Numbered from the stretch's first letter, positions 6,353 through 58,979 are shown. The stretch: DNA of 64,000 nt from an uncultured Rikenellaceae bacterium (GCA_964577305.1 CAZNYS010000004.1:8661-72660); one strand, 5' to 3'. The notes: generated by a model from the sequence alone, not told the origin. Made by a program: numbers and translations.

Positions 6353-6360
6353 TATTTTTG
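6353..6360 (+). promoter_or_regulatory. -7 promoter box (TATTTTTG) for aspS
   Basis: TAnnTTTG 23 bp upstream of ATG 6383. Confidence 0.5.
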
Positions 6361-20091: not shown

Positions 20092-21990
20092 ATGAGTGAT
20101 CAGATTAAACATGAGTGTGGCATAGCAATGATAAAGTTGCTTAAGCCGCTGGAATATTTTATTGAGAAATATGGGAGATGGGATTATGGCCTGCAGAAGA
20201 TGTACCTGATGCTTGAGAAACAACATAACAGGGGTCAGGATGGTGCAGGAATTGCCGGTTTGAAGAAAGGAGTCAAACCCGGTGAAAAATATTTTTTCAG
20301 GCACAGGTCAAACGGAAGCAACCCTATAAGGGAAATATTTGACACCATCTATAATGACGTAAGGAAGCTGGGATTTGAGCAGCCTGATAAAATAGAATAT
20401 AACTCCCTGAGACAAAATCTTCCTTATGCCTCAGATATTTATGTCGGGCATGTCAGGTACGGAACCTATGGTCTCAACAATATTGAAAATGTTCACCCGG
20501 TGATGAGATTAAATAACTGGAGGTCCAGAAATCTCGTACTGGCAGGAAATTTTAACCTGACAAATGTAAACGATATCTTCGGATCACTGGTTGATATAGG
20601 CCAGCACCCAACCGATTTTTCTGATACGGTAACCATACTTGAGAATGTTGGACATTTCCTTGATGAGGAAGTGGAATCGCTATTCATGAAGTACCGTGCA
20701 AAAGGACTGGAAAAAAAGGAAATTTCTCCTTTGATAGAAAAAAATATTGAGGTGGCTGAAGTCCTGCGAAATGCCAGTAAAAGATGGGATGGTGGCTATG
20801 CCATGGCAGGCATGCTGGGACATGGGGATGTCTTTGTTGTCAGAGACCCCTGGGGGATACGTCCTGTATTTTATTATATTGATGATGAGGTGATTGTGGT
20901 GGCCTCGGAGCGACCGGTAATTCAAACATTATTTAACCTCAAAACTGACCAGGTTAAAGAACTGCAACCAGGCTATGCCCTTACTGCAAAATCCTCAGGA
21001 GAAGCTAAAATTGAAATGATACGCGAGCCGGAAATAGAGAAAAAGTGCTCTTTTGAACGTATCTATTTTTCCAGGGGAACAGATAAATCAATATACAGGG
21101 AGAGAAAGAAACTGGGAGAACAACTCACAGGAAGGGTGCTGGAGGTAATAGATTTTGATCTTGAAAATACAGTATTTTCTTATATACCGAATACGGCTGA
21201 AAGTGCTTTTTACGGGTTAATAAAAGGCTTGGAGGATTATCTTAGGGATCATAAGGTTAAACTTATCAGGGAAAAGGGTAACGAATTGTCAGATAAAGAA
21301 CTGGAAATAATACTTTCATCAAGGCCCCGCATTGAAAAACTGGCTGTGAAAGATGCAAAACTGAGAACATTTATTACTGAAGATAAATCACGCGACGACC
21401 TGGTTGGCCATGTCTATGATGTTACCTACGGGGTGATAAGAAGAGGAATTGACAGTATGGTGGTACTGGATGACTCAATAGTCAGGGGTACAACCCTTAA
21501 AAAAAGCATAGTTCGAATACTTGACAGGCTGGACCCTCGCAAAATTGTAATAGTCTCTTCATCACCCCAGATAAGATATCCTGATTGCTACGGTATTGAT
21601 ATGGCTAAAATGGGTGACTTTATTGCTTTCAGGGCGGCAATTGAGTTATTAAAAACCAAAGGTATGGAAGGTAAAATAGGTGAGGTATATGAAAAAGCTC
21701 TGAAAGAGAACCGTAAGCCCCTGAATGAAATAATAAATGTTGTAAAAGAAATATACGATCCTTTTTCCGCTGATGAAATATCGTCACAGATAGCACGTAT
21801 GCTTAAACTTCCCGTAATAAATGCTGATCTAGAAATAATATACCAGTCTATTGAGGGACTCCATGAAGCATGCCCCGGGCATCTTGGCGATTGGTACTTT
21901 ACAGGCAATTATCCCACACCCGGCGGCAATAAAGTAGTTAACCAGTCTTTTATTAATTACATAGAAAAAAAGGACACAAGGGCATATTAA
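20092..21990 (+). CDS. purF: Amidophosphoribosyltransferase (long Bacteroidota form)
   Basis: IKHECGIA N-terminal nucleophile Cys, HNRGQDGAG, RDPWGIRP, FERIYFSRG and VLDDSIVRGTT PRPP loop. Confidence 0.92.
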   Translation: MSDQIKHECGIAMIKLLKPLEYFIEKYGRWDYGLQKMYLMLEKQHNRGQDGAGIAGLKKGVKPGEKYFFRHRSNGSNPIREIFDTIYNDVRKLGFEQPDKIEYNSLRQNLPYASDIYVGHVRYGTYGLNNIENVHPVMRLNNWRSRNLVLAGNFNLTNVNDIFGSLVDIGQHPTDFSDTVTILENVGHFLDEEVESLFMKYRAKGLEKKEISPLIEKNIEVAEVLRNASKRWDGGYAMAGMLGHGDVFVVRDPWGIRPVFYYIDDEVIVVASERPVIQTLFNLKTDQVKELQPGYALTAKSSGEAKIEMIREPEIEKKCSFERIYFSRGTDKSIYRERKKLGEQLTGRVLEVIDFDLENTVFSYIPNTAESAFYGLIKGLEDYLRDHKVKLIREKGNELSDKELEIILSSRPRIEKLAVKDAKLRTFITEDKSRDDLVGHVYDVTYGVIRRGIDSMVVLDDSIVRGTTLKKSIVRILDRLDPRKIVIVSSSPQIRYPDCYGIDMAKMGDFIAFRAAIELLKTKGMEGKIGEVYEKALKENRKPLNEIINVVKEIYDPFSADEISSQIARMLKLPVINADLEIIYQSIEGLHEACPGHLGDWYFTGNYPTPGGNKVVNQSFINYIEKKDTRAY

Positions 21991-43513: not shown

Positions 43514-43589
43514 GGTACAAATATAGCAAATGCCCGGGTCACACCCCGGGAATAAAAAACGTAATTATTTTGTAGATTTGGTAATAATT

Positions 43590-43994
43590 ATGGAGCAAAG
43601 AGATTATATATTAAGAGAGATTGAAAAAATCTCAGTGGTAATAATGGCCATACTGGGTAAATTCAGGCGGATAAAGTCAAAGAAACAGTTTGAACAGGAA
43701 AGAACAATGATTGACAATCAACTGGAAGAAGCCAACGGGTTAACAATCGATAAACTTTTATCTTTTACAGAAGAAGAAATAATTTCATTTATAGATGTAA
43801 ATGAAGGGTTTGTCCCGGGGAACATGGAACTCCTTGCTGACCTGCTTATTGCATTTGCCGAAAATTTACCTGAAAATGAGAGTCGTAATCTTTTAAATAA
43901 AGCCGTAATAATTCTTGAATATGTAGACCGTGAAACCAAAACCTTTTCAATGGAACGGTCGTTGAAAATATCCTGTTTAAGGGAAAGGCTCTAA
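43590..43994 (+). CDS. Hypothetical helical protein (DUF6483-like); probable start ATG 43590
   Basis: MEQRDYILREIEK N-terminus. TAGATTTG box at 43573-43580. Confidence 0.55.
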   Translation: MEQRDYILREIEKISVVIMAILGKFRRIKSKKQFEQERTMIDNQLEEANGLTIDKLLSFTEEEIISFIDVNEGFVPGNMELLADLLIAFAENLPENESRNLLNKAVIILEYVDRETKTFSMERSLKISCLRERL

Positions 43995-44037: not shown

Positions 44038-45423
44038 TTATTTTCTGAATTTCCTGACAAATTCTTCAACCTCTTTAACACCTCCCTGGTAAACGAGGTA
44101 TCCGTTATAGGGTTCTCTTTCTGTTATTTCGTCATTAACAGGCCTCAGCATTATTTCTTTTACTTTCGCAGGATCATCAGTCTGGCCCAGGGCCCAGCCC
44201 AGTTTAACCCATGCAACCTCGGGCAGCATATTACCAAGGGGCACTACACCCTTGGCCATCATATCACGGCCGGTTTCATAAACCATCATATGAACATAGC
44301 CCCAGATAGTCTGCAGCGTCATAAAAACTGACACTCCCTTTTCTTTTGCTCTCTGCAGCGCAGGATATAGTTCCCTGTTGACATGGCCCAGCCCTGTTCC
44401 AACTATAATAATTCCTTTATAACCCATATCAATCAGGCTGTCAAATATTTCAGGCTGCATATGCGGGTAGTAATAAAGCATGGTAACCTGCTCACTGAAG
44501 TATGGCATGATTTTTACCTTCTTGTCCTTACGACGGGGATTATATTCTTTCTTGATATGTTTAATCCCTTCTTTCGTGACTGTTGCCACAGGCGTATCTC
44601 CTATTGTCCTGAAGGTCGACCGGTAAGAGCTGTGCATTTTCCTGACCCTGGTTCCCCTGTGCAGGAAGCCATAATCGTCGGAAGTAGGGCCGAACATGCA
44701 AACCAGTACTTCTGCAATATCACCATGACCCGCAGCGTATGATGCATGAATAAGGTTAAGGGCGGCGTCGGATGAAGGGCGGTCGGATGATCGCTGTGAA
44801 CCGACCAGGATCACTGGTATGGGAAGGTTCTGAACCATAAATGACAGTGCTGCTGCTGTATGATGCAGGGTGTCAGTACCATGACCGATTATTATCCCGT
44901 CAGCACCATTCTCAATCTCCTTGCCAATGGCCTTGGCCAGGGTAATATATTGTTCAGGACCCATATTCTCGCTGAAAACAGCAAATAGTTTTTCAGTATT
45001 TATATTACATATATCGGCCAGTTCAGGTACAGCCCCGTAAAGTTCCCCGGGTGAGAAAGCCGGTATAACGGCTCCCGTACGGTAGTCCAGTCGTGATGCT
45101 ATGGTACCTCCCGTGCCAAATAGTTTGACAGTGGGTTTATCATCAGAATACGGAAATTCTTTTTCTGGTATCTTGTAATTGGCTTTCTTGTAGCCTGTTT
45201 CTTTCATTGATGTTATAGTGCTGATATTGATACCAATATTATAGCCGGTTTCAATTTTCAGCACCAGGTGCATATCATCATCATTTTCTGATCTTGGCAA
45301 TACAGTACCCCTGAATACTCCCCTGGTGGTTTCAATATAAGCCTGTCCCCATACCCTCACATTGTATTTTTTGAGAGTATTGAGTGCTTTACCCCTGTAT
45401 CCCTGGAATATTTGATCAGTCAT
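44038..45423 (-). CDS. gatD: Glu-tRNA(Gln) amidotransferase subunit D (archaeal-type GatD)
   Basis: GatD N-terminal domain (LKIETGYNIGI), GGTIASRLDYRTGAV, HGTDT, GSQRSSDRPSSD, VRKMHS, GTGLGHV and MLPEVAWVKLGWALG motifs. Confidence 0.93.
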   Translation of the reverse strand: MTDQIFQGYRGKALNTLKKYNVRVWGQAYIETTRGVFRGTVLPRSENDDDMHLVLKIETGYNIGINISTITSMKETGYKKANYKIPEKEFPYSDDKPTVKLFGTGGTIASRLDYRTGAVIPAFSPGELYGAVPELADICNINTEKLFAVFSENMGPEQYITLAKAIGKEIENGADGIIIGHGTDTLHHTAAALSFMVQNLPIPVILVGSQRSSDRPSSDAALNLIHASYAAGHGDIAEVLVCMFGPTSDDYGFLHRGTRVRKMHSSYRSTFRTIGDTPVATVTKEGIKHIKKEYNPRRKDKKVKIMPYFSEQVTMLYYYPHMQPEIFDSLIDMGYKGIIIVGTGLGHVNRELYPALQRAKEKGVSVFMTLQTIWGYVHMMVYETGRDMMAKGVVPLGNMLPEVAWVKLGWALGQTDDPAKVKEIMLRPVNDEITEREPYNGYLVYQGGVKEVEEFVRKFRK

Positions 45424-47398
45424 CTGTCATGATTCTTTGTTCGAGTTTTATTCTCAGTTCACTTAACCTTATATTGCCTGTTGCCTGGCTTCTAACCTGG
45501 CCCATAATCCAGTTAACCGCACAACCAGGATCATCCGATTTACGTTCTTCATTAAATTTTTCGTACAGGAAAACAGCAGGAGCAAGAATGTCATTTATTC
45601 CTTTCTTTTTGTAATTCAATATTGTGAGTATGGATTCATATCTCATTTTGGGATGTTGGTACAGAACCTTAATCATCGGGCCTGCTATTTCAACCTGCAG
45701 ACATTGTGAATTTATAAAACCAAAAAGCTTATAAATTATATCATAATTAAAGTTCTTGTGTGGTTTCATGGTCCCTTCAATATTTTTAAACCTATGACCA
45801 AGGAAAATCCCTATAGACCTGGCGTCAAAACCAAAATCATTTGAGATTGAGACTATCAGGGGGTACAGGTTTTTACTCAGGATATACTTGTATGTATCTT
45901 CCGGTATTCCCCATTTTTTCATCTGCTTAATCCTGCCTGAAACATAATCCGGCAATTTTGCTCTTATTTCTTCAATCTGTTCATCGCGCAGAGGAATAGG
46001 GGCAGAGTCGGTATCGGGATACATCCTGTTCTTACCCGGAAGCACTCTCTCAAACATTGTTGTACCATCCGGGAATGATTTTCTGGTTTCGTTTGGTACA
46101 CCTGTAAAAGCAATCTGTATTCTTTCCTCCACCGTTTCAAGTGCTGTGGGTATATCTTCGGGAGGTCCCCACAGGATTATCAGGGCATCCTCATCTGTAG
46201 CTCCAAGGAAATCTGCTATCCTCTTCCATTTATCCCTTGACAGTAAAGGTTCCAGCTCTTCTGAATGGGTCATATTGGGTTTTTCGATGCATGCGATAAC
46301 CTTCAACCTGTCACTTATCTCATCGGCAAATATTCTCCCTGGCTGAGTGAAGTGTGACAGTATTGCATTGCAGTCTGGAAGCCTGAGAGAAAAGACCTGC
46401 ATATTATTATTAAAAGCTTTCTTAACAGGTTCTGACAGTAAAGATGTATCACTGCCAGATATTTCCCTGTATACGATTTTCCATCTTGAAGGATCATTCA
46501 CTCTGTCATTGAGAATATCCCTGATATGAAGAAGTGCATATTGCCGGAATGCTTCATTATGTGACAGTTCAGGTATCCAGTTATTATGTGCCACACCTTT
46601 AACCTCAACCCTGCTTCCCCCCTCGCAGCTTACATTTACGTCTTCCCTTCCTGAACCTATACCCGTACGAACCTTTCCGGTACTCCTGTTCAGGTACCTG
46701 ATATATTCTGCTGCTTCAGCCAGTTCCCATGGTGTGAACATGTCGGGGTAGGTAACCGTTTCAATCAGTGGCATGCCCAGACGGTCTGTTTTGAATATTC
46801 GGGTATGACCGATATCTGATATTTCACGGCATGAATCTTCTTCGATACTTAGCTGCATTATCCTGACTTTCTTATTGGTCAGTTCAATTTCACCTTCTAC
46901 ACCCAGTATGGCTGATCTCTGGAAACCCGTTGGTATGCTGCCATCAAGATATTGTTTGCGTATAATGTGAACTTCACCTACAATGTTGAGCTTACATAAT
47001 AATGATATTTCAAGTGCTATATCAAGTGCTTTCCTGTCAATAGGAAAAGGAGGAGTATCATCAACTTCATAGGTGCAGGCGTTATCATTATGGATACGAT
47101 AGATTATCTCTTTGCGTGTCTTAAATTCCATAAGAGCAGTTCCGTCGTATTCACCAAGCTCACTAAGGGTAGGACGCATATGGCGTATGACTTCGGCATC
47201 ATAATCGTTATTATCATGGTAGATCCCTGCCGGGCAGCGACAAAAAAGCTTACTTTCAGTGTCCAGCTGCTGATGAACCTCAAGTCCGGATTTAAATCCT
47301 ATCCTGAGGTAATCCTTCTCAGATGCATCATGCAGACTAACATAACCGATCAGCTTAAGGGTCGATTCATAGTTCCTTTTTGGACTAAACCTTTTCAT
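45416..47398 (-). CDS. gatE: Glu-tRNA(Gln) amidotransferase subunit E (archaeal-type GatE)
   Basis: GLEVHQQLDT..KLFCRCP, RPTLSELGEYD, DGSIPTGFQRS, IEEDS, DRLGMPLIE, REDVNVS, RVEVKGV, GAD-like insert, GVPNETR...LPG..RMYPDTD and a helical tail. Confidence 0.93.
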   Translation of the reverse strand: MKRFSPKRNYESTLKLIGYVSLHDASEKDYLRIGFKSGLEVHQQLDTESKLFCRCPAGIYHDNNDYDAEVIRHMRPTLSELGEYDGTALMEFKTRKEIIYRIHNDNACTYEVDDTPPFPIDRKALDIALEISLLCKLNIVGEVHIIRKQYLDGSIPTGFQRSAILGVEGEIELTNKKVRIMQLSIEEDSCREISDIGHTRIFKTDRLGMPLIETVTYPDMFTPWELAEAAEYIRYLNRSTGKVRTGIGSGREDVNVSCEGGSRVEVKGVAHNNWIPELSHNEAFRQYALLHIRDILNDRVNDPSRWKIVYREISGSDTSLLSEPVKKAFNNNMQVFSLRLPDCNAILSHFTQPGRIFADEISDRLKVIACIEKPNMTHSEELEPLLSRDKWKRIADFLGATDEDALIILWGPPEDIPTALETVEERIQIAFTGVPNETRKSFPDGTTMFERVLPGKNRMYPDTDSAPIPLRDEQIEEIRAKLPDYVSGRIKQMKKWGIPEDTYKYILSKNLYPLIVSISNDFGFDARSIGIFLGHRFKNIEGTMKPHKNFNYDIIYKLFGFINSQCLQVEIAGPMIKVLYQHPKMRYESILTILNYKKKGINDILAPAVFLYEKFNEERKSDDPGCAVNWIMGQVRSQATGNIRLSELRIKLEQRIMTDD

Positions 47399-47640
47399 TC
47401 TTCGATCAATAATATGGCCAATTTATGGAAGAATGCGGAGATATCAAATTCCTGTCTTTTTAAGGAAGAACAGGTGATTTAATAAATTAAATAATATTTC
47501 CCGGTATTTGTTAATTTATCTCAAATTGGGCTTTTGCTTATATAAAATCTTAAACAGAAAAGCAGAAATAGAAAATTGACAGAAATTTAATTTTTTTGTC
47601 CGGTAATGAATGGCATCCCTCTTTATTCTATCTGAATGAA

Positions 47641-57473: not shown

Positions 57474-58979
57474 ATGATCGATAATGAAATTTTAATGAAT
57501 CCCAACGAACTGGTACAATTCCTTAAAAAGCCTGCCGGTCAGTTCACCAGGGCTGATATAATAAGATTTGTTGAAGCCAAGGGAATAGAGATGATAAACT
57601 TCCGTTATGTTGCTGAAGACGGGAAGCTTAAGACACTTAATTTTGTAATGTCGGACCGCCAGCATCTGGAGAACTTATTATCGGAAGGAGAGAGAGTTGA
57701 TGGTTCCAGCCTGTTTTCATTTGTAGGGGCCGGCTCAAGCGATCTTTATGTCATACCTAGGTACCGGACTGCTTTTGTAAATCCTTTCACAGAGAGGCTT
57801 GCCCTGGATATACTGTGTTCATTTTATGATTATGAGGGAAAGCCACTTGAAAGTGCTCCTGAAAATATATTAAAGAAAGCATATGAGCGGTTTATGACAA
57901 AATCAGGTTTGGAGATCAAAGCGCTGGGAGAACTGGAATATTATGTTAAATCGATTGAAGATGATCTGTATCCCATGATACACCAGAAAGGATATCACCA
58001 GTCTATACCTTTTGCGAAATTTGAGGATCTTCGTATTGAAGCACTTGAGTTGTGTGCAAAGGCAGGGTGCAGGATCAAATATGGGCACTCAGAGGTTGGC
58101 AGCTTTACCAGTGAGGGAGAAAATTATGAGCAACATGAGATTGAATTCCTTCCAACTGATGTTGATTTTGCAGTTGAACAGATGGTAATAGCCAAATGGA
58201 TACTCAGGATGCTGGGTTATGAGCATGGTGTTGAAATCAGCTTTGCTCCGAAGATAACAGTAGGGAATGCTGGTAGTGGACTGCATATTCATATGTTGCT
58301 TGAAAAAGATGGGAAGAATATTATGCTGGACAAAGGAGAGATAAGCAATACAGCAAGGAGAATGATCGCAGGTATACTCGATCTCTCAGTGTCACTGACA
58401 GCTTTCGGTAATACCATACCTACATCTTACCTGAGGCTGGTTCCCCACCAGGAGGCCCCGACAAATATATGCTGGGGCGACCGCAACCGCTCGGTGCTGG
58501 TACGTGTGCCCCTGGGCTGGTCAGATACAGGTAATATGGTTAAACAAGCAAATCCCTGCGAAGAGTCTGAAGCAGACTTCACCGGAAGCAGGCAGACTGT
58601 TGAATTCAGGGCCCCCGACGGCTCGGCCGATCTGTACCTGCTGATGGCAGGACTTGTCACTGCGATTAAACACGGACTCGAGATGGAGAATGGTCTGGAG
58701 TATGCAAACAGCCTGTATGTTTCAGGAAACCTGTTTACTGAGGAGAATAAAGCCTTCCGTGAAAAGCTGCAATCATTACCCACATCATGTTGGGAATCGG
58801 CTGAAAACCTTGACCGACAACGATCATTTTATGAGAAAGACAATGTGTTTCCGCCCGGTCTTATCGACAGTATAGTAAAAAGGTTAAAATCATTTGATGA
58901 TAAAGATCTGAGTGAGAGGCTTTATGGTAAAAAGAATGAGCTGGCCGAACTGGTTAATAAATATCTGCACTATAGTTAA
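57474..58979 (+). CDS. glnA: Glutamine synthetase, type I-like
   Basis: DGSS, GELEYY, HSEVG, QHEIEF, GSGLHIH, EAP...WG.RNRS...R and VEFR motifs. TATATTTG box at 57431. Confidence 0.9.
   Translation: MIDNEILMNPNELVQFLKKPAGQFTRADIIRFVEAKGIEMINFRYVAEDGKLKTLNFVMSDRQHLENLLSEGERVDGSSLFSFVGAGSSDLYVIPRYRTAFVNPFTERLALDILCSFYDYEGKPLESAPENILKKAYERFMTKSGLEIKALGELEYYVKSIEDDLYPMIHQKGYHQSIPFAKFEDLRIEALELCAKAGCRIKYGHSEVGSFTSEGENYEQHEIEFLPTDVDFAVEQMVIAKWILRMLGYEHGVEISFAPKITVGNAGSGLHIHMLLEKDGKNIMLDKGEISNTARRMIAGILDLSVSLTAFGNTIPTSYLRLVPHQEAPTNICWGDRNRSVLVRVPLGWSDTGNMVKQANPCEESEADFTGSRQTVEFRAPDGSADLYLLMAGLVTAIKHGLEMENGLEYANSLYVSGNLFTEENKAFREKLQSLPTSCWESAENLDRQRSFYEKDNVFPPGLIDSIVKRLKSFDDKDLSERLYGKKNELAELVNKYLHYS

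Follow-up and report, generated by a model that had tools for sequence, protein, structure and literature searches.

Here we describe a gatE-gatD gene pair within a 64,000-nucleotide stretch of DNA from an uncultured Rikenellaceae bacterium (GCA_964577305.1 CAZNYS010000004.1:8661-72660; this whole stretch is referred to below as the window). We consider it likely that the pair encodes a functional heterodimeric GatDE, a tRNA-dependent amidotransferase, from a native and translationally coupled operon, and that it belongs to a bacterial clade which goes back to a single ancient transfer, with an Asgard-like archaeon as donor, and has been inherited vertically within the Bacteroidales. By homology with the archaeal enzyme, its most likely function would be to turn Glu-tRNA(Gln) into Gln-tRNA(Gln). 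The finding is a bacterial branch of a known enzyme family, and it replaces the picture of a singular inter-domain transfer.

An open reading frame (ORF) call placed gatE (660 amino acids) and gatD (461 amino acids) next to each other on the minus strand, with overlapping ends, so that both GatDE subunits are encoded together in the window (Table 1). The coordinates and lengths are exactly those given in an earlier note made from the sequence alone, which had described two adjacent full-length genes. The overlap of the gatE stop codon with the gatD start codon is predicted to couple the translation of the two genes. Both products exceeded the curated NCBIfam equivalog cut-offs for their families. 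Specifically, GatE reached 471.2 bits with NF003107 (cut-off 456) and 411.4 bits with TIGR00134 (cut-off 319.6), the NCBIfam GatE model covering residues 27-656, and GatD reached 497.7 bits with NF003217 (cut-off 310) and 496 bits with TIGR02153 (cut-off 324). Judged by these profile scores, the family assignment of both ORFs lies far beyond chance.

Two other assignments were considered and rejected. GatCAB works by the same logic, a tRNA-dependent kinase being connected to a glutaminase via an ammonia tunnel, and its GatB subunit shares the cradle and the YqeY-type tail with GatE (PMC2330236, PMC2811023). A GatB identity of the window protein was nevertheless ruled out, since the GatB equivalog models gave only 48-109 bits against cut-offs of 315-680 (the best score was 109 against 338, and none passed), the partner gene is an asparaginase-type gatD instead of the amidase gatA, and a search of the window and of 86 loci with ∼1.3 Mb of flanking sequence returned no second GatB-like gene; nor is there a GatC. 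GatD, in turn, also matched TIGR00519 with 381 bits, which is below its GatD-specific score of 498 bits. That it could be a stand-alone type I L-asparaginase of ∼330 amino acids was ruled out by the higher score with the GatD model, by a 95-residue N-terminal region with PF18195 and by the operonic gatE.

The catalytic residues of both subunits are intact. GatD could be aligned end to end with GatD from M. thermautotrophicus (2D6F_A; E 4e-116, 44.7% identity), and its residues T107, T183, D184 and K262 correspond to T101, T177, D178 and K254 of the archaeal protein and are invariant in 72 of 72 GatD sequences. The protein combines the GatD_N domain with a type I asparaginase fold, the Thr nucleophile and the Thr-Asp-Lys triad. 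GatE matched 2d6f_C with an E-value of 5e-91. Here, H42, E186 and E213 of the Mg2+/kinase site correspond to H15, E157 and E184 of M. thermautotrophicus GatE, which are Mg2+ ligands whose mutation abolishes both kinase and transamidase activity (PMC2330236). All three are invariant in 42 bacterial sequences (8 from Bacteroidales and 34 others) and in at least 85 of 88 archaeal ones. Residues R147, K148, R161, R251, K267 and R439 are likewise invariant in the 42 bacterial and in nearly all of the 88 archaeal sequences, and further invariant columns comprise E437, T438, R439 and R458-D464. The active-site residues that the earlier note had named in GatD and GatE are thus real and match those defined by experiment in the archaeal enzyme, and the N-terminal GatD domain that it had recognised is present as PF18195. 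Its proposal of an AspRS-like insert and a helical tail in GatE also held for the presence of both elements, with the qualifications that the insert scores just below the Pfam threshold and that the tail is strongly diverged.

The insert, a GAD domain that is absent from GatB, matched Pfam GAD with an E-value of 1.7e-4 and 22.2 bits, just under the gathering score of 23.4, over profile positions 2-90 of 95. It is the least conserved part of GatE. Some members of the bacterial clade match PF02938 outright, and a Foldseek search with the GatE model returned faint AspRS matches. The AlphaFold2 model of GatE (predicted local distance difference test score, pLDDT, 81.5; predicted template-modelling score, pTM, 0.79) retrieved the GatE crystal chains 2d6f and 1zq1 as best hits, with target-normalised template-modelling (TM) scores of 0.79-0.83 over 510-538 columns, followed by GatB. 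The N-terminal extension of GatE is helical at high confidence in the model. Within this region Bacteroidales sequences showed the consensus residue at a frequency of 0.67, as against 0.15 for other bacteria and 0.05 for archaea, so that the extension is kept within the Bacteroidales only. We also observed that the pLDDT fell below 50 only at residues 69-95, 109-115, 151-158, 190-197 and 452-463, and that these segments coincide with the most invariant motifs, namely RHMRPTLSELGEYDGTALMEF, KQYLDGSIPTG and MYPDTD. Judging from the model, they are probably loops at the active site or at the interface with GatD, which would take on an ordered shape only once the complex has formed.

Both genes are under strong purifying selection, the GatE tail included. 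The ratio of non-synonymous to synonymous substitution rates (dN/dS) was ∼0.02 for GatD and 0.06-0.08 for GatE, with low dN; as synonymous sites were saturated (dS > 1.2 or undefined), these values are rough only.

The gatE-gatD operon is native to a Bacteroidales chromosome. Its GatE recurs without any difference in sequence, flanked by the same genes to either side, on at least 24 contigs of independent Joint Genome Institute (JGI) and Logan assemblies. One flank carries genes for a LolE-like permease, NamZ, an aminotransferase and ValRS, while GatD, Nudix, SLT, porin, FtsZ and FtsA are encoded on the other. The wider context in the window is bacterial, with a dcw cluster, a bacterial-type AspRS and ValRS. 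In addition, there is no break in GC content at the locus, and the GC content, the GC content at third codon positions (GC3) and the codon usage of gatE and gatD are within the range of the housekeeping genes in the window. An assembly chimera, in which archaeal contamination had been joined to a bacterial contig, was the artefact against which the earlier note had warned. All that speaks for such a chimera is that an 'archaeal' enzyme is, a priori, unexpected in a bacterium; the chimera is ruled out by the recurrence in independent assemblies, by the same synteny in isolates and in a closed chromosome, and by the native composition, which together leave it next to no probability.

To describe the distribution of the pair, one genome per GTDB species was scanned with two peptide patterns as probes, and at least 594 of these genomes contained a GatE relative. 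Both patterns occur in all bacterial GatE sequences compared, and among archaea only in those of Heimdall/Hodarchaeales; therefore, this count is essentially bacterial. More than 120 protein clusters at 66-97% identity stem from metagenome-assembled genomes (MAGs) assigned to Bacteroidales, Bacteroidia or Bacteroidota. The best 80 loci, with 59-80% GatE identity, include a closed 4.27 Mb Bacteroidales chromosome (OY764960.1) and, from culture, the isolates Perlabentimonas gracilis M08_MB (NZ_JAANIG01), Labilibaculum euxinus A4 (NZ_WTCR01), Labilibaculum sp. K2S and Marinifilum flexuosum DSM 21950 (NZ_RAPQ01). The block porin-SLT-nudix-gatD-gatE-lolE-namZ-aminotransferase-valS is common to the window and about half of these loci, the isolates included, and the Bacteroidales synteny holds down to 60% GatE identity and includes three cultured genera. 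This conserved synteny points to long vertical inheritance within the Bacteroidales.

Beyond the Bacteroidales, an exhaustive search of 50%-identity representatives returned ∼45 further clusters at 43-59% identity, after which values dropped to archaeal levels. A profile of these clusters retrieved MAGs of Calditrichia, KSB1, Krumholzibacteria, Latescibacteria, Aminicenantes, Desulfobacterota and Clostridiales, as well as closed genomes of 4.1 and 6.0 Mb. In 78 of 84 loci, gatD lies directly downstream of gatE on the same strand. The same 8-nt overlap recurs in a 5.98 Mb bacterial genome and in Calditrichia, and an overlap of 1 nt is found in Aminicenantes; in these three, the cassette lies among core bacterial genes (secA, dnaA, recO, pnp). 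No conserved third gene was detected beside the cassette, neither in the synteny group of the window nor in the three loci from other phyla.

A number of loci deviate from this arrangement. Four Bacteroidales loci (L012, L024, L046 and L062) have no gatD adjoining gatE, even though the sequence continues (for 10 kb in L046), and a few others have a gap of 0.3-2 kb between the two genes. MAGs labelled as Lentisphaeria, Eubacteriales, Ignavibacteriaceae and Aminicenantes (L010, L043, L057, L060, L066 and L081) carry GatE of the Bacteroidales subclade at 60-65% identity; either the bins are mislabelled or the gene moved from one bacterium to another recently. The synteny of the window is absent from these six loci, and likewise from many loci labelled as Bacteroidales. 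Two proteins with ∼300 extra residues (P0158, 943 amino acids) and ∼165 extra N-terminal residues (P0183, 781 amino acids) suggest GatE fusions.

In reviews up to 2022, GatDE is called an archaeal signature protein or exclusive to archaea (PMC2330236, PMC8762117). This is a statement of the literature on distribution and not a biochemical criterion, and the pair described here departs from it, with a bacterial host contig and relatives that are essentially all bacterial. The earlier note had left open whether bacterial homologues were already annotated; the NCBI Prokaryotic Genome Annotation Pipeline (PGAP) and JGI do label these proteins GatD and GatE. On the other hand, its remark that no functional characterisation was known agrees with our full-text searches, which returned neither a description nor a functional study of a bacterial GatDE, most subscription journals lying outside their coverage. 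The bacterial branch of GatDE is large, already auto-annotated and apparently undescribed.

A bootstrapped neighbour-joining tree of GatE (82 taxa, 628 columns, 200 replicates) recovered the bacterial sequences as monophyletic in 200 of 200 replicates, with the Bacteroidales as a nested subclade in equally many. The other side of the tree is archaeal (Heimdall-, Hod- and Thorarchaeota, and sequences labelled 'archaeon'), and a split between bacteria plus Heimdallarchaeota and the remaining archaea was obtained in 166 of 200 replicates. When three GatB cores were used as outgroup (175 columns, 300 replicates), the root fell inside the archaea 260 times, and archaeal monophyly was seen 35 times. 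Among archaea, the closest GatE sequences are those of Heimdall/Hodarchaeales (P0160/P0277 and P0200), with 405 bits against at most 345 for others, and no other archaeal sequences have the motifs KQYLDGSI and [EV]YDGTALM that are found in the bacterial clade. On a Heimdallarchaeota contig (Ga0247413_1056966; L089 5939-9488), gatD lies next to gatE among archaeal genes and the two are divergently transcribed, which makes the co-directional, overlapping cassette a feature of the bacterial clade. The bacterial clade attaches beside the Heimdall/Hodarchaeales GatE, and the GatB root tentatively places it inside archaeal diversity. From the tree split, the GatB root and the shared motifs, we tentatively favour one ancient transfer from archaea to bacteria, the donor possibly being Asgard-like, with the genes spreading among bacteria thereafter. 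The inter-domain transfer put forward in the earlier note thus keeps its archaeal origin, with this reservation, but the event was neither singular to this genome nor recent. A recent, lineage-specific transfer from an archaeon directly into this Bacteroidota genome would fit the fact that GatDE is otherwise characteristic of archaea. It is, however, highly improbable and ruled out by the distribution: the nearest relatives are hundreds of bacterial sequences, the bacteria are monophyletic in the tree, the best archaeal match is only 37% identical, synteny is kept across Bacteroidales families, and the composition is ameliorated.

Comparison with known systems places the window pair as follows. 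With archaeal GatDE (M. thermautotrophicus 2D6F; P. abyssi 1ZQ1) it shares the two subunits and their order of domains, GatD_N plus asparaginase in one subunit and cradle, AspRS-like insert, helical domain and YqeY-like tail in the other, as well as identical catalytic residues; GatE identity is ∼33%. It differs in its bacterial host, in a co-directional and overlapping cassette as opposed to the divergent pair of the nearest archaeal relative, and in a GatE with a 28-residue N-terminal extension, a changed loop beside tRNA pair 1-72 and tail motif, and a lost Pfam signature in the tail. The Heimdall/Hodarchaeales GatE, in contrast, has normal GAD and YqeY Pfam signatures. Other bacterial GatDE pairs (from MAGs of Calditrichia, KSB1, Latescibacteria, Krumholzibacteria, Aminicenantes and Desulfobacterota) have the clade, the overlapping cassette, the ordinary bacterial contexts and the automatic GatE/GatD annotation in common with the window pair. 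Their GatE is 41-59% identical to that of the window and keeps both the archaeal-like RG(K/R)x(D/P)G motif of the tail and a match to PF02637, which are lost in the Bacteroidales subclade.

Based on homology to the archaeal enzyme, the reaction may be pictured as follows. The heterodimer, by analogy arranged as alpha2-beta2, would bind Glu-tRNA(Gln) through the cradle, insertion, helical and tail domains of GatE. GatE would then phosphorylate the gamma-carboxyl group with ATP/Mg2+ at H42, E186 and E213. GatD, as a type I asparaginase-like glutaminase with T107 as nucleophile and the T183-D184-K262 triad, would release ammonia from Gln or Asn, and this ammonia would travel to GatE and amidate the activated intermediate, yielding Gln-tRNA(Gln). 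The genes for this enzyme would descend from one ancient transfer from an Asgard-like archaeon, with later spread in the Fibrobacteres-Chlorobi-Bacteroidetes (FCB) group and other bacteria and vertical descent within the Bacteroidales.

Several points weigh against this reading. On the side of origin, the phylogeny is by neighbour-joining only and the outgroup test comprises 175 columns, both being simple methods. With respect to the substrate, 12 of 14 Bacteroidetes genomes in a published survey have GlnRS and a discriminating GluRS and no gatCAB (PMC3927822), in line with the expectation of the earlier note that Bacteroidota normally use GlnRS; if the host is typical of the surveyed Bacteroidetes, no Glu-tRNA(Gln) substrate would be available. 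Furthermore, in archaea GatDE recognises tRNA(Gln) by its A1-U72 pair and its D-loop (PMC2330236, PMC9499178), as opposed to U1-A72 in bacterial tRNA(Gln). Two GatE-specific recognition elements have been described, a basic loop beside tRNA pair 1-72 and a tail motif in the GXXAXGX region (PMC2811023), and in Bacteroidales neither has its archaeal form. The loop (window 46640-46699, GatE residues 234-253) reads VKRGlGT-IRQD in archaea and VRTGIGA-GRED in Bacteroidales, while other bacteria have VR(R/T)GxGA-xRQD. The tail motif (window 45455-45511, GatE residues 630-648) is LMGxxMxx-xRGxxDG in archaea and NWLMGQLRxQ-AxGNVDL in Bacteroidales, while other bacteria keep the archaeal-like xRGxxDG, so that Bacteroidales differ from both groups. 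Finally, the C-terminal 193 residues of the window GatE gave no match to PF02637 (GatB_Yqey), whereas a Heimdallarchaeota GatE scored 84 bits and a bacterial GatE from outside the Bacteroidota 39 bits.

Despite the missing PF02637 match, the helical domain and YqeY-like tail can be recognised by other means. Comparison of tail profiles with hhalign aligned the Bacteroidales tail with archaeal GatE tails at 99.0% probability (E 5e-18), collinearly over 189 columns, and with other bacterial tails at 99.3% (E 9e-21); for other bacterial against archaeal tails the E-value was 8.5e-44. When modelled alone, the tail was helical with a pLDDT of 92.8, and its top folds were GatB, GatE and the GatB-like tRNA-binding domain of yeast GlnRS, with weak E-values. 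According to these alignments and models, the tRNA-binding helical/tail module is retained in the window GatE, and replacement by an unrelated domain was ruled out by hhalign and the fold search. The tail is the most variable region of GatE in all groups, archaea included, and its dN/dS relative to the nearest relatives was ∼0.08-0.11. Fast evolution of this region on the Bacteroidales stem gave way to conservation; decay as the cause of the divergence was ruled out by the conservation within the clade, the low dN and the confident model. Judged by the residues affected, the changed elements concern recognition rather than catalysis. The changes in loop and tail may represent adaptation to bacterial tRNA(Gln), adaptation to another tRNA, or neutral drift. 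With tail and loop diverged, an altered tRNA specificity of the Bacteroidales GatDE is possible.

These considerations leave several ways in which the enzyme could be used. Within the reading of a functional GatDE, the pair might be the sole route to Gln-tRNA(Gln) in carriers that lack GlnRS and have a non-discriminating GluRS, as in archaea. The genes are very strongly conserved and have been kept by vertical descent across deep divergences, which would fit an essential gene; Fluviicola taffensis provides a precedent of a Bacteroidetes member without GlnRS that relies on an amidotransferase (PMC3927822), and the other phyla of the clade are mostly groups in which GlnRS is uncommon. Since GlnRS is nevertheless present in 13 of the 14 surveyed Bacteroidetes and gatD does not adjoin gatE in 4 of 84 loci, we regard a sole route as somewhat doubtful. 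Searches with tblastn, using E. coli GlnRS and GluRS as seeds, gave no match in the window or the 86 loci (∼1.3 Mb of flanks); ARAGORN found no tRNA in the window, and in the flanks only those for Ala, Ile, Arg and Leu, with neither tRNA-Gln nor tRNA-Glu among them.

Alternatively, the Bacteroidales enzyme could be a repurposed amidotransferase, as the earlier note had also considered, performing the same kinase/glutaminase chemistry on another aminoacyl-tRNA or in another role, for example on Asp-tRNA(Asn), in the clean-up of occasional Glu-tRNA(Gln) mischarging beside GlnRS, or on an aminoacyl-tRNA used outside translation. The enzyme complement of the surveyed Bacteroidetes (PMC3927822) would leave a canonical GatDE without substrate, yet the genes are strongly conserved; the altered loop and the burst of change in the tail followed by conservation are also in accord with a new role. 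Repurposing seems unlikely to us all the same: the residues of the catalytic pocket are invariant and identical to those of archaeal GatE, neither a new domain nor a conserved third gene has been gained, and the tail is variable in every group. The sequence changes could also reflect an enzyme that coexists with GlnRS and has been retuned through tail and 1-72 loop to U1-A72 tRNA(Gln), Asp-tRNA(Asn) or a non-translation tRNA, a version of events that we think rather improbable as well. A functional GatDE acting on Glu-tRNA(Gln) remains the explanation that we prefer.

Table 1. Features of the gatE-gatD locus in the window.
Feature	Position	Strand	Basis or remark
gatE, tRNA-dependent kinase/amidotransferase subunit E	45416..47398	-	NCBIfam, PF02934 (GatB_N), 2d6f_C, AlphaFold model and Foldseek
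gatD, glutaminase subunit D	44038..45423	-	NCBIfam, PF18195, PF00710, PF17763, 2d6f_A
gatE/gatD overlap	45416..45423	-	8 nt, ATGACTGA, gatE stop over gatD ATG
GatE residues 1-28, N-terminal extension	47315..47398	-	archaeal GatE alignments begin at residue 29
GatE residues 29-295, cradle (catalytic) domain	46514..47314	-	H42, E186, E213 and loop 234-253
GatE residues 296-420, AspRS-like (GAD) insertion domain	46139..46513	-	Pfam GAD
GatE residues 421-467, cradle domain, second part	45998..46138	-	ETR and MYPDTD motifs, both invariant
GatE residues 468-660, helical domain and YqeY-like tail	45419..45997	-	putative tRNA D-loop sensor by homology, diverged in Bacteroidales
GatD domains			GatD_N residues 33-70 (PF18195), asparaginase N 99-291 and asparaginase C 312-425 (PF00710, PF17763)
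Spacer between lolE-like gene and gatE	47399..47640	-	242 nt, presumed promoter region

Upstream of gatE, the spacer contains no perfect copy of TAnnTTTG, the Bacteroidota -7 motif, and a generic scan for promoters and terminators around the operon gave nothing above chance. Across the whole window, the motif is not enriched (60 copies found against 65.7 expected), and Rfam returned no regulatory RNA. The earlier note had called flanking genes and promoters clearly Bacteroidota; the flanking genes are indeed bacterial, and the promoter part needs a small correction. Despite the lack of enrichment in the window, the motif does occur 20-45 nt upstream of many gene starts, for example at 6353, 8237, 15745, 18003, 18820, 39401, 41354, 53324 and 57431 on the plus strand and at 946, 43518, 48903, 52874 and 57329 on the minus strand.

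Some further genes in the window may be mentioned. An ORF of 154 amino acids at 43530-43994 (+), convergent with gatD and without NCBIfam match, is kept in the closest relatives only, namely the identical contigs L001 and L002, and L004. At 57474-58979 (+), 10 kb from gatDE, a glutamine-synthetase-like protein of 501 amino acids is encoded, which scored 211 bits against the GlnA cut-off of 429 and is a divergent enzyme of the glutamine synthetase family. The 632-amino-acid protein encoded at 20092-21990 (+) matches PurF only weakly and over part of its length (122 bits, with the cut-off at 350); it would seem to contain a class-II glutamine amidotransferase domain.

In reviews up to 2022, GatDE is considered to have co-evolved with archaeal tRNA(Gln), and the fact that archaea never gained a GlnRS has been put down to this. 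A large, conserved bacterial clade of GatDE contradicts the statement that the enzyme is restricted to archaea, and any tRNA-dependent amidotransferase is unusual in Bacteroidetes. This point is tempered by the correct automatic annotation of the genes; what has been lacking is recognition and characterisation, not detection. If the Bacteroidales GatDE has indeed been retuned, its specificity would be a new one for an enzyme whose co-evolution is regarded as confined to archaeal tRNA(Gln). The bacterial clade is a natural experiment in how GatDE copes with the identity of bacterial tRNA(Gln), with its U1-A72 pair, and with bacterial GluRS partners, and growable carriers in culture (Marinifilum, Labilibaculum and Perlabentimonas) make the question directly testable. 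The clade also bears on the evolution of GatDE, GatCAB and GlnRS, in particular on presence in LUCA (last universal common ancestor) versus later transfer, and on gene exchange between Asgard archaea and bacteria.

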